Below, in pieces: positions 62,186 to 64,000 of a stretch of 64,000 nt of DNA. How positions within the stretch are numbered: the stretch's first letter is position 1; every line of letters starts with the position of its first letter. Both the position numbers and the translations under genes were made by a program. Location of the stretch: the NCBI RefSeq assembly GCF_056746865.1, contig NZ_CM163382.1, one strand, 5' to 3'. The notes under the pieces were generated by a model. It was not told where the DNA came from, ran no database searches, and saw only the letters and a program-made list of their open reading frames with translations.

Positions 62186-64000
62186 TTGAGCCAGGAATAC
62201 ACTGAAGACAAAGAAGTCACATTGACAAAGTTAAGTAGCGGCCGCCGCCTTCTGGAGGCGTTGCTGATCCTTATTGTCCTGTTTGCCGTCTGGTTGATGG
62301 CTGCCTTACTAAGCTTTAACCCTTCGGACCCCAGCTGGTCGCAAACGGCCTGGCATGAACCTATCCATAATTTAGGTGGGATGCCCGGTGCGTGGCTGGC
62401 AGATACGCTGTTCTTTATTTTTGGCGTGATGGCTTACACCATTCCCGTCATTATTGTCGGCGGTTGTTGGTTTGCCTGGCGTCATCAGTCCAGCGACGAA
62501 TACATTGATTATTTTGCCGTTTCGCTACGCATCATTGGCGTTTTGGCGCTCATCCTTACCTCCTGTGGTCTGGCGGCAATCAACGCTGACGATATCTGGT
62601 ATTTTGCCTCCGGTGGCGTCATTGGCAGCTTACTAAGCACTACGCTACAACCACTGCTACACAGTAGCGGGGGAACTATTGCGCTGCTCTGCGTTTGGGC
62701 AGCGGGCCTGACGCTGTTCACCGGTTGGTCATGGGTGACCATTGCTGAAAAACTCGGCGGCTGGATTTTAAATATTCTTACCTTCGCCAGTAATCGTACC
62801 CGTCGCGATGATACCTGGGTCGATGAAGATGAGTATGAAGATGACGAAGAGTATGAAGATGAAAATCACGGCAAACAGCATGAATCACGCCGTGCTCGTA
62901 TTCTTCGCGGCGCGCTAGCGCGTCGTAAACGGTTGGCGGAAAAATTCATTAATCCGATGGGGCGGCAAACAGACGCTGCGTTGTTCTCCGGTAAGCGGAT
63001 GGATGATGACGAAGAGATTACCTACACTGCACGCGGTGTGGCTGCCGACCCTGACGACGTCCTCTTTTCGGGCAATCGTGCAACGCAGCCAGAATATGAC
63101 GAGTACGATCCATTATTAAACGGTGCGCCAATTACCGAACCTGTTGCTGTAGCAGCTGCTGCTACCACGGCGACGCAAAGCTGGGCTGCACCGGTTGAAC
63201 CTGTGACTCAGACGCCATCTGTTGCCTCTGTTGATGTTGCACCTGCACAACCTACAGTAGCCTGGCAGCCTGTACCGGGGCCACAAACGGGAGAGCCGGT
63301 GATTGCTCCTGCACCGGAAGGTTACCCACAGCAGCCACAATATGCGCAGCCTGCAGTGCAATATAATGAGCCGCTGCAACAACCTGTACAGCCACAGCAG
63401 CCGTATTATGCGCCTGCGGCGGAACAACCTGTTCAGCAACCGTATTACGCAACTGCGCCGGAACAGTCTGCGCAACAGTCGTATTACGCCCCTGCGCCAG
63501 AACAATCGGTGGCAGGTAACGCCTGGCAAGCCGAAGAGCAGCAATCCACTTTTGCTCCACAGTCTACATACCAGACTGAGCAAACTTATCAGCAGCCAGT
63601 CGCTCAGGAGCCGTTGTACCAACAGCCGCAACCTGTTGAACAGCAGCCTGTTGTGGAGCCTGAACCCGTTGTAGAAGAGACAAAACCCGCGCGTCCGCCG
63701 CTTTACTACTTTGAAGAAGTGGAAGAGAAGCGAGCCCGTGAACGTGAACAACTTGCGGCCTGGTATCAACCGATTCCAGAACCGGTTAAAGAACCAGAAC
63801 CGATCAAATCTTCGCTGAAAGCACCTTCTGTTGCAGCAGTACCTCCAGTAGAAGCCGCTGCCGCTGTTTCTCCGCTGGCATCTGGCGTGAAAAAAGCGAC
63901 ACTGGCGACGGGGGCTGCCGCAACCGTTGCCGCGCCAGTCTTCAGTCTGGCAAATAGCGGTGGACCGCGTCCGCAGGTCAAAGAGGGGATTGGCCCGCAG
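62186..64000 (+). CDS. ftsK: DNA translocase FtsK, N-terminal membrane domain and Pro/Gln-rich linker; TTG start; 3' end beyond the window
   Basis: Frame from TTG at 62186 translates (M)SQEYTEDKEVTLTKLSSGRRLLEALLILIVLFAVWLMAALL... and stays open to the window end. Confidence 0.85.
   Translation, partial: MSQEYTEDKEVTLTKLSSGRRLLEALLILIVLFAVWLMAALLSFNPSDPSWSQTAWHEPIHNLGGMPGAWLADTLFFIFGVMAYTIPVIIVGGCWFAWRHQSSDEYIDYFAVSLRIIGVLALILTSCGLAAINADDIWYFASGGVIGSLLSTTLQPLLHSSGGTIALLCVWAAGLTLFTGWSWVTIAEKLGGWILNILTFASNRTRRDDTWVDEDEYEDDEEYEDENHGKQHESRRARILRGALARRKRLAEKFINPMGRQTDAALFSGKRMDDDEEITYTARGVAADPDDVLFSGNRATQPEYDEYDPLLNGAPITEPVAVAAAATTATQSWAAPVEPVTQTPSVASVDVAPAQPTVAWQPVPGPQTGEPVIAPAPEGYPQQPQYAQPAVQYNEPLQQPVQPQQPYYAPAAEQPVQQPYYATAPEQSAQQSYYAPAPEQSVAGNAWQAEEQQSTFAPQSTYQTEQTYQQPVAQEPLYQQPQPVEQQPVVEPEPVVEETKPARPPLYYFEEVEEKRAREREQLAAWYQPIPEPVKEPEPIKSSLKAPSVAAVPPVEAAAAVSPLASGVKKATLATGAAATVAAPVFSLANSGGPRPQVKEGIGPQ

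Follow-up and report, generated by a model that had tools for sequence, protein, structure and literature searches.

The 39-bp typing locus ms06 is a copy-number-variable, in-frame repeat array within the Pro/Gln-rich linker of Escherichia coli FtsK

The E. coli divisome contains Pro/Gln-rich, low-complexity and presumably disordered tethers, such as the P/Q domain of ZipA and the C-terminal linker of FtsZ, which join a membrane or polymer anchor to a functional domain. The FtsK tract described here resembles them in these general terms, although the sequences are unrelated and no homology is claimed. The closest described protein system is the linker of FtsK itself (FtsK-L; Bigot 2004, Dubarry 2010, via PMC5357621), which is the same protein region as the tract. 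As outlined in PMC5357621, FtsK-L is unstructured and Pro/Gln-rich, varies in length and composition by species, is needed for full chromosome dimer resolution and makes divisome contacts. The unstructured, Pro/Gln-rich nature of the linker is also described in PMC2673442, and its variation in length between species, its contacts with FtsZ, FtsQ, FtsL and FtsI, and its requirement for full dimer resolution are described in the literature (PMC5357621, PMC2673442, PMC6137255). The FtsK-L studies (Bigot 2004, Dubarry 2010) used K-12, which carries what we describe below as the 2-copy allele, and natural copy-number alleles do not appear in the accounts of these studies given by PMC5357621.

At the DNA level, two variable-number tandem repeats (VNTRs) with 39-bp units are known in this gene. 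The first, ms06, belongs to the Shigella/E. coli MLVA panel (Gorge et al. 2008, via PMC8215070, PMC4644529) and is the same locus as the array in our sequence, hereafter array A. Its published description gives a unit of 39 bp, an offset of 223, alleles of 2, 3 and 4 copies and a range of 301-379 bp (PMC8215070, PMC4644529); in the marker descriptions of these two sources, ms06 stands as an anonymous size marker, without the chimeric unit structure or protein context given here. The second and better known, CVN001 of the Lindstedt generic E. coli MLVA, is ms07, with STTR7/SENTR2 in Salmonella. Like array A, CVN001/ms07 is a length-variable, in-frame VNTR of 39 bp (13 codons) in the Pro/Gln-rich ftsK linker that is used for typing. 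Unlike array A, it has the unit QQPQQPVAPQPQY in 3-8 copies and lies ~700 nt downstream, past the end of the window (the whole 64,000-nt stretch of DNA that was analysed); we refer to it as array B. Both the Pro/Gln linker of FtsK and the 39-bp VNTRs within it have been known, and exploited for strain typing, for over fifteen years, and the locus has little bearing on biological discovery.

Positions 62186-64000 of the window (plus strand) are the 5′ part of ftsK and are 100% identical to E. coli 118UI over the overlap. According to the RefSeq annotation of 118UI and the translation, these positions hold the first 605 codons of the coding sequence, beginning with a TTG start, and ftsK continues past the window end. 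A Pfam search placed FtsK_4TM (PF13491) at residues 20-191 of the window ORF (E = 1.5e-42), while PF17854 (alpha), PF01580 (FtsK_SpoIIIE, the P-loop motor) and PF09397 (gamma) were found in the full 118UI gene, past the window end. The gene order trxB-lrp-ftsK-lolA, seen in the RefSeq annotation of 12 E. coli loci, is enterobacterial. The gene that holds the tract is ftsK, which encodes a DNA translocase of the FtsK/SpoIIIE type. The tract itself (63100-63720, plus strand) encodes FtsK residues 305-512 and sits between the 4TM domain and the motor, so that an earlier sequence-only reading, which had called it the FtsK linker, was correct as to both gene and place. The tract forms the membrane-proximal half of FtsK-L, a long, acidic, Pro/Gln-rich and probably disordered linker between the four-helix membrane anchor of FtsK and the motor at its C-terminus. 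The literature and the composition of the tract suggest a role as a tether with divisome contacts.

The composition and entropy of residues 305-512 mark them as an acidic, low-complexity part of the linker that is rich in Pro, Gln, Ala, Val, Glu and Tyr: the 208 residues comprise 38 Pro (18%), 36 Gln (17%), 31 Ala (15%), 21 Val, 20 Glu and 15 Tyr. Entropy is 3.38 bits in the tract versus 3.97 in the membrane domain, and the combined fraction of Pro and Gln in 30-residue windows is at least 0.30 from residue 333 onward. With only two Lys and Arg residues together, the tract has a net charge of -21. Its mean hydropathy of 0.420 falls below the charge-hydropathy boundary of 0.450, on the disordered side, and disorder-promoting residues make up 67% of it. 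AF2 modelled residues 333-506 as coil with a pLDDT of 28-36; since this run used a 9-sequence alignment in which the membrane-domain control was also low (pLDDT ~40-60), the low values of the tract are weak evidence of disorder. No solved structure is similar to the tract by sequence. Taking the composition together with the literature, the tract is probably disordered.

The tract is nevertheless not free to drift in sequence, as dN/dS is well below 1 and the core residues of the repeated unit are invariant. The membrane domain and the motor have dN/dS ratios of 0.022 and 0.015, respectively, against 0.10-0.16 in the tract; the ratio is 0.14 in the array, where dS is inflated because non-orthologous units are aligned. 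At the end of the tract, AF2 and a cross-genus comparison pointed to a conserved charged segment of predicted helical structure, PPLYYFEEVEEKRAREREQLAAWY (residues 507-526; 63704-63763, plus strand). It is the sole linker segment that AF2 modelled as helix with a pLDDT above 70, and it is kept in Salmonella and other genera, whereas the tract that precedes it is not kept there. An RNA or regulatory element hidden in the tract was considered and rejected: no Rfam match was found in 61000-64000 at E <= 1, and no promoter-like site was found in the tract on either strand. Four terminator-like hits all lay outside the tract, a number near chance expectation.

The sequence-only reading had also proposed that the linker is built from degenerate repeats. 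The short motifs that it named do exceed expectation from composition-preserving shuffles of the tract: QQP occurs seven times against 1.1 expected, QQPV three times against 0.13, YYA three times against 0.16 and EPV four times against 0.38. A repeat-finder check of the linker also returned a period. Tandem Repeats Finder (TRF) reported a period of 39 nt at 63395-63505 (2.8 copies, 77% matches, score 131), a second repeat search resolved three in-register units at 63395-63511, and the autocorrelation of the protein at lag 13 gave z = 5.6 against 4.1 for the 99.9th percentile of the best shuffle lag. The true array is only 117 nt long, however; periodicity is limited to these 117 of the 620 nt of the tract (63395-63511), and the flanks to the left and right of the array within the tract show no significant period by themselves. 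The tract is a low-complexity sequence with one embedded tandem array, not a sequence of repeats throughout, and the proposal holds with this refinement.

Array A (63395-63511, plus strand), delimited by TRF, the repeat search and aligned indels, consists of three 39-nt units: unit 1, QQPYYAPAAEQPV (63395-63433); unit 2, QQPYYATAPEQSA (63434-63472); and unit 3, QQSYYAPAPEQSV (63473-63511), all on the plus strand. Each unit has 13 codons, and the encoded peptide is QQPYYAPAPEQPV. In 11 aligned FtsK sequences, 13-residue in-frame indels coincide exactly with the array. A decayed relic unit, QQPQYAQPAVQYN (63329-63367, plus strand), sits 66 nt upstream of the first unit, in register with the array, and shares 64% identity with the reference unit. 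A fragment of FtsK from Kluyvera carries the segment that matches this relic as a repeated 13-residue unit. The three independent arrays found in enterobacterial FtsK linkers (E. coli A, E. coli B and Kluyvera) all have a 13-residue period.

Primer mapping demonstrated that array A is the published VNTR locus ms06, and its variation was already known. The ms06 forward primer matches at 63285-63304 (plus strand) with one mismatch and the reverse primer at 63605-63624 (minus strand) with none (primers from PMC8215070, PMC4644529). The amplicon in the window is 340 bp, and (340-223)/39 gives 3.0 copies. In silico, 11 of 12 genomes yielded ms06 amplicons of 301, 340 or 379 bp, the remaining one being 283 bp in ZJ3920, which carries an in-frame variant of -57 nt. 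That array A might instead be CVN001/ms07 was ruled out, as the CVN001/ms07 primers are absent from the window and map ~2.1 kb into ftsK, around array B. The two 39-bp VNTRs of ftsK, ms06 within the window and ms07/CVN001 past its end, are distinct loci and need to be kept apart. A shared origin of the two arrays found no support, their similarity being no better than that of codon shuffles (23 of 39 identities in the best in-frame rotation, P = 0.31).

For a census of copy number, two systematic rank-stepped samples, each of 60 genomes, were drawn from the 5,426 complete genomes of E. coli, a clinically biased collection, and the counts are uncorrected for phylogeny. Of the 120 sampled genomes, 37 had array A in 2 copies, 39 in 3 copies and 43 in 4 copies, and the one genome left (ZJ3920) had the -57-nt variant, which is likewise in frame. 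The corresponding spans in the two 60-genome samples were 762, 801 or 840 nt for one query and 423, 462 or 501 nt for another. The expectation that linker length would vary between strains was thus borne out by the comparison of ftsK linkers among E. coli genomes: the variation proceeds in 39-nt steps and is restricted, within the tract, to array A, whose 2-, 3- and 4-copy alleles are about equally common. All length variants seen leave ftsK in frame. Every sampled O157:H7 strain and K-12 derivative had 2 copies, and the B strains had 3. For spans across both arrays, many rows aligned only in part, so that total lengths are unreliable; the full-coverage rows differ by multiples of 39 nt, except for H138 (-40) and H139 (-63), whose alignments end 2 nt before the query end. 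No clear trend for the copy numbers of arrays A and B to offset each other, and so to hold the length of the linker steady, was seen in 12 fully resolved genomes.

It could be argued that such length variation is an assembly artefact produced by collapse or expansion of the repeats, given that many database FtsK entries are partial and lie at the ends of 1-2 kb contigs, and that one assembly has frameshifts at this locus. However, the census used only assemblies at the 'complete genome' level, genomes fall into length classes that step by exactly 39 nt and do not vary within clonal groups, a 117-nt array fits within one sequencing read, and independent PCR sizing by MLVA gave the identical three alleles and amplicon sizes. 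An artefact is accordingly so improbable that it can hardly be entertained. A tandem repeat within a coding sequence whose copy number varies across the population also brings to mind a contingency (phase-variation) locus that would switch FtsK function on and off. With a unit of 13 codons, however, changes in copy number never shift the frame, and ftsK was intact in all 12 complete genes examined. Moreover, the units are few and ~77% identical, which does not favour a high slippage rate, and copy number was constant within the sampled O157:H7 strains, K-12 derivatives and B strains. On these grounds we consider a role in phase variation very improbable.

The units themselves record how copies have been gained and lost. 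Each of the four units c, g, i and k is a chimera with one breakpoint and no mismatch, its parents being units that are adjacent in other alleles and that differ at 5-11 sites. As these units are exact chimeras of neighbours, recombination or slippage between misaligned units accounts for the gain and loss of copies. We propose that copy number changes when, in the course of replication or recombination, adjacent, ~77%-identical units pair in a shifted register, and that each such event adds or removes exactly one in-frame unit and leaves a chimeric unit at the junction. The segment would serve mainly as a flexible spacer and a weak interaction region. With a unit length divisible by 3 and a role mainly as spacer and weak interaction region, alleles that carry 2, 3 or 4 units (2-5 in the genus as a whole) would all encode working proteins, and they may persist as lineage markers; neutrality of copy number is an assumption of this explanation. 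Seen at the level of single units, the locus illustrates clearly how 39-nt copies come and go by out-of-register exchange, leaving chimeric units where they join. Taken as a whole, the explanation that a probably disordered FtsK linker carries the ms06 minisatellite, that its copy number changes in a neutral manner and that the overlapping ORFs discussed below are side effects is, in our judgement, highly probable.

A competing view is that the 13-residue unit is not neutral spacer length but a functional short linear motif, an aromatic/acidic 'sticker' (QQPYY....EQ) that would bind a divisome partner or promote self-association of FtsK, with copy number (2-5) tuning avidity. Among 35 distinct units, collected from 17 loci in six species or lineages of Escherichia, residues Q1, Y4, Y5, E10 and Q11 never change, although each of their codons varies synonymously. 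A pure spacer would not predict such invariance, the dN/dS of the array (0.14) is far from 1, and parts of the linker contact FtsZ, FtsQ, FtsL and FtsI (review, PMC5357621). Nevertheless, when 100,044 species representatives were scanned, the unit turned up in only five records, all from Escherichia, and nowhere outside this genus, and the Salmonella sequence at the array position is unrelated although the division partners are conserved. Units that were duplicated and homogenised only recently, a process to which the chimeras attest, can also be invariant. We therefore regard the motif reading as unlikely. In a more specific form, the QQPYY....EQ core would act as a multivalent sticker and the copies of array A, possibly with those of the second array, would tune septal interactions or self-association; this we hold to be somewhat less likely still. 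If true, the 2-, 3- and 4-copy alleles of E. coli would be functionally distinct, not neutral.

Returning to the preferred explanation, in which the ORFs overlapping the tract are side effects of its codon usage, the ORF list contains three of them: a 217-aa antisense ORF (63116-63769, minus strand), a 102-aa antisense ORF (63252-63560, minus strand) and a 123-aa ORF in the +2 frame of ftsK (63303-63674, plus strand), all of which we judge to be spurious. The frame of the 217-aa ORF lies exactly opposite the sense codons, where stops arise only from sense TTA, CTA and TCA; with just two TTA codons in the tract, this frame is poor in stops, and its mean open run in codon shuffles is 137 codons. 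The other two runs match those of shuffles (102-aa ORF, 103 codons observed versus a mean of 98; 123-aa ORF, 123 versus 103). The codon set of the tract (CAG, CAA, GAA, CCN, GCN, GTN and TAY) rarely makes stops in two antisense frames or in the +2 frame, and the three ORFs stem from this composition.

The length of these ORFs, and in particular the fact that the 217-codon run exceeds 99.5% of codon shuffles, might be taken to mean that one of them is a real overlapping gene. That rank reflects only the clustering of both TTA codons at one end of the tract, however, and in 8 of 11 strains the open run reaches only ~161 codons. The 217-aa frame has a pN/pS ratio of 1.48 and the +2 frame one of 1.21, versus 0.13 for ftsK, and the overlapping frames show no constraint. 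None of the three ORFs has a Pfam match, and the absence of promoter-like sites from the tract, noted above, also speaks against a separate gene. The chance that any of them is a gene is, in our estimation, vanishingly small, and the claim of the sequence-only reading that the tract produces long spurious antisense ORFs is upheld by the missing constraint, the lack of a Pfam match and the stop-poor codon composition.

Two database fragments, P0015 and P0023, run on into the +2 frame of ftsK, but such +2-frame 'proteins' come from an assembly with many frameshifts. Naturally truncated forms of FtsK were considered for P0015 and P0023 and set aside in favour of assembly error as the likely cause, since ftsK, lolA and rarA are all split in the assembly of P0015. 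The practical interest of the tract lies in annotation and assembly: long false ORFs, both antisense and in the +2 frame, arise from it reliably, frameshifted assemblies can read ~100 residues of nonsense 'protein' through it, and together with the downstream array it is a spot where short-read assemblies break.

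The Pro/Gln-rich tract at 63100-63720 (+ strand) lies within ftsK, whose first 605 codons, read from a TTG start, occupy 62186-64000 (+), the gene continuing past the end of the window. The ftsK segment is 100% identical to that of Escherichia coli 118UI, a urine isolate from Mexico, in which the gene order is the usual trxB-lrp-ftsK-lolA and FtsK has 1,368 residues. Pfam placed FtsK_4TM at residues 20-191 of the window ORF; the complete 118UI gene showed alpha, FtsK_SpoIIIE and gamma domains as well. This gene order, the domains and the position of the tract (residues 305-512 of the window ORF) confirm that it belongs to the FtsK linker. 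In the literature the linker is described as unstructured, Pro/Gln-rich and variable in length among species (~650 residues in E. coli, ~200 in vibrios and ~125 in Pseudomonas), as required for full chromosome dimer resolution, and as contacting FtsZ, FtsQ, FtsL and FtsI (PMC5357621, PMC2673442, PMC6137255). The 208 residues of the tract comprise 38 Pro, 36 Gln, 31 Ala, 21 Val, 20 Glu and 15 Tyr, with a sequence entropy of 3.38 bits versus 3.97 for the membrane domain.

Tandem Repeats Finder detected one array in the tract (63395-63505; period 39 nt, 2.8 copies, 77% matches, score 131), and a repeat search resolved it into three in-register 39-nt units at 63395-63511 (+), here called array A, together with a relic unit, 64% identical, at 63329-63367 (+). 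Protein self-identity at lag 13 gave z = 5.6, whereas the best lag of shuffled sequences reaches 4.1 at its 99.9th percentile. When the flanks of the array (99 residues on the left, 70 on the right) were each subjected alone to the shuffle test, no significant period was found. QQP, QQPV, EPV, PV and YYA are commoner in the tract than composition alone predicts. The tandem-repeat check proposed in the sequence-only reading thus did detect a period; the accompanying description of the linker as built from degenerate repeats applies only to roughly a fifth of the tract, which elsewhere shows biased composition and scattered short motifs.

Because the unit is 39 bp, the literature was checked for known markers. 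Array A is VNTR ms06 of the Gorge et al. panel. The published ms06 primers map to 63285-63304 (forward, + strand, 1 mismatch) and 63605-63624 (reverse, - strand, 0 mismatches). The in silico amplicon is 340 bp long in the window and 283 bp in strain ZJ3920; every other genome fetched gives 301, 340 or 379 bp. Published values for ms06 are alleles 2, 3 and 4 of a 39-bp unit, amplicon sizes of 301-379 bp and a Simpson diversity of 0.63 (PMC8215070), with an offset of 223 bp (PMC4644529). The feature is therefore already known, as the FtsK linker and as VNTR ms06.

Two different queries were run against all 5,426 complete RefSeq genomes of E. coli, and from each ranking 60 rows were taken at even steps. 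The common matched spans were 762, 801 or 840 nt in the first and 423, 462 or 501 nt in the second, always in 39-nt steps. Over both samples, array A has two copies in 37 genomes (among them one partly aligned row that proved on inspection to be a 2-copy allele), three in 39 and four in 43, a diversity of ~0.67 from the sampled frequencies that is consistent with the published 0.63. In an alignment of 11 full FtsK proteins, the indels are exact 13-residue blocks within the YYAPA array and the rest of the tract is constant in length. Linker length thus does differ between strains, as had been anticipated, with the variation confined to the array. In ZJ3920, the one remaining genome, an in-frame loss of 57 nt takes out QQPVQP and one unit. 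Copy number is two in every O157:H7 and K-12-derived genome sampled and three in the B strains; given this constancy, array A acts as a stable lineage marker rather than a hypermutable site.

Unit typing distinguished 17 different 39-nt sequences among 11 strains. The window array reads a-b-c and that of the close relative 18KM2445 reads a-b-k-l. Unit c joins the 5' part of k exactly to the 3' part of l, and k is likewise an exact composite of c and b. Unit g of BL21 combines h and e, neighbours in the 4-copy ETEC allele, and unit i combines f and b (or o), neighbours in GON1437; these two chimeras are exact as well. All four chimeras fit a single-breakpoint model with zero mismatches, their parent units differing at 5-11 sites. 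This is the footprint of out-of-register pairing between neighbouring units, which could occur by unequal recombination or replication slippage.

A second array, B, of 39-nt QQPQQPVAPQPQY units, lies in ftsK beyond the window end (locus L001, 4183-4847, equivalent to about 64180-64850). It is ms07, the counterpart of Salmonella STTR7/SENTR2 (PMC2430564, PMC8627665, PMC4644529). The primers of CVN001, a 39-bp-unit marker of the generic E. coli MLVA scheme (PMC8143711), have no match within the window and map ~2.1 kb into ftsK, flanking array B. Array B has ~8 copies in 118UI and 3-6 in most other strains; arrays A and B together give ftsK lengths of 1,328-1,368 codons in the strains examined. 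DNA similarity between A and B units was not above a codon-shuffle null.

A scan of one genome per species (100,044 species) with a degenerate DNA pattern encoding QQPYYAPA[AP]EQ matched five Escherichia records only, with four copies in E. albertii, five in E. whittamii, two in each of two other Escherichia species and four in a record labelled E. coli. Salmonella fragments retain both flanks (left, ...WQPVPGPQTGEPVIAPAPEGY; right, ...EETRPARPPLYYFEEVEEKRAREREQLAAWYQPIPEP), between which lies unrelated Pro/Gln-rich sequence, and a Kluyvera protein fragment (P0068) has its own 13-residue repeat, QPQYAQPQQPAYE, at that position. These comparisons indicate that the linker middle turns over between genera while the flanks are conserved. 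A 13-residue period is common to three differing FtsK linker arrays, E. coli A (QQPYYAPAPEQPV), E. coli B (QQPQQPVAPQPQY) and that of Kluyvera.

Over 55 strain pairs, dN/dS was 0.022 for the membrane domain and 0.015 for the motor, against 0.10-0.16 for the tract and 0.14 for the array, where dS is inflated because non-orthologous units are aligned. Constraint on the tract is thus five- to ten-fold below that on the folded domains, yet the tract is not neutral. Among the 35 distinct units collected from 17 Escherichia loci, the residues Q1, Y4, Y5, E10 and Q11 never change, with synonymous variation at every one of these codons; positions 7-9 and 12-13 vary. All units expected from array length were recovered, so the invariance is not a collection artefact. 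The conserved YY and EQ positions would allow for a motif function, which seems improbable.

The tract has a net charge of -21, with only two basic residues, and falls on the disordered side of the charge-hydropathy boundary. Composition supports disorder, with weak backing from an AF2 model in which low scores extended to the control domain; the first 605 residues of FtsK have no solved structure similar by sequence. The best reading is that the tract would act as a flexible acidic tether and weak-interaction region tolerating 2-5 units. The sole linker segment with a predicted helix and pLDDT >70, PPLYYFEEVEEKRAREREQLAAWY (residues 507-526; 63704-63763, +), is kept in Salmonella and other genera, whereas the preceding Pro/Gln tract is not, and may be a real functional element.

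A 217-aa antisense ORF (63116-63769, - strand) lies exactly opposite the sense codons, so that stops in it arise only from sense TTA, CTA and TCA; CTA and TCA are absent from the tract, and its two TTA codons sit side by side at the left edge. After codon shuffling of the tract, this frame stayed open for 137 codons on average; the shuffles also reproduced the lengths of a 102-aa antisense ORF and a 123-aa +2-frame ORF. ftsK has a pN/pS of 0.13, compared with 1.48 for the frame of the 217-aa antisense ORF and 1.21 for the +2 frame, and in 8 of 11 strains the long antisense run is shortened to ~161 codons. Pfam matched none of these ORFs, and the tract has no Rfam family or promoter-like site. 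The three ORFs are by-products of codon composition, in agreement with the sequence-only reading, which had called the long antisense ORFs spurious. In two public database proteins, P0015 and P0023, the reading of ftsK switches to the +2 frame within array A and then runs on through ~100 nonsense residues. P0015 (locus L018, 1489-2823) comes from the NCTC assembly GCA_900449455.1, and since ftsK, lolA and rarA are all split there, its frameshift is likely due to assembly indel errors.

Elsewhere in the region, an acidic in-frame ftsK repeat, DEDEYEDDEEYEDE (62822-62863, +; an 18-nt/6-nt tandem array, TRF score 70), has one additional Glu codon in S1-IND-02-A. The lrp-ftsK spacer contains, 79 nt before the ftsK start, a sequence that conforms to the LexA-box core CTGT-N8-ACAG, CTGTTAATCCATACAG (62092-62107); it is probably the box of the SOS-inducible dinH promoter of ftsK. 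Database relatives of the ftsK segment are mostly incomplete FtsK proteins encoded at the termini of contigs 1-2 kb long, a pattern suggesting that assembly from short reads is often interrupted at the ftsK repeats. In the E. coli searches, 8-24 matching places also fell on plasmid-labelled records, one of them a 287-kb EDL933 record (search row H124), although ftsK belongs to the chromosomal core; mislabelling or fragmentation of the replicons is the probable explanation.
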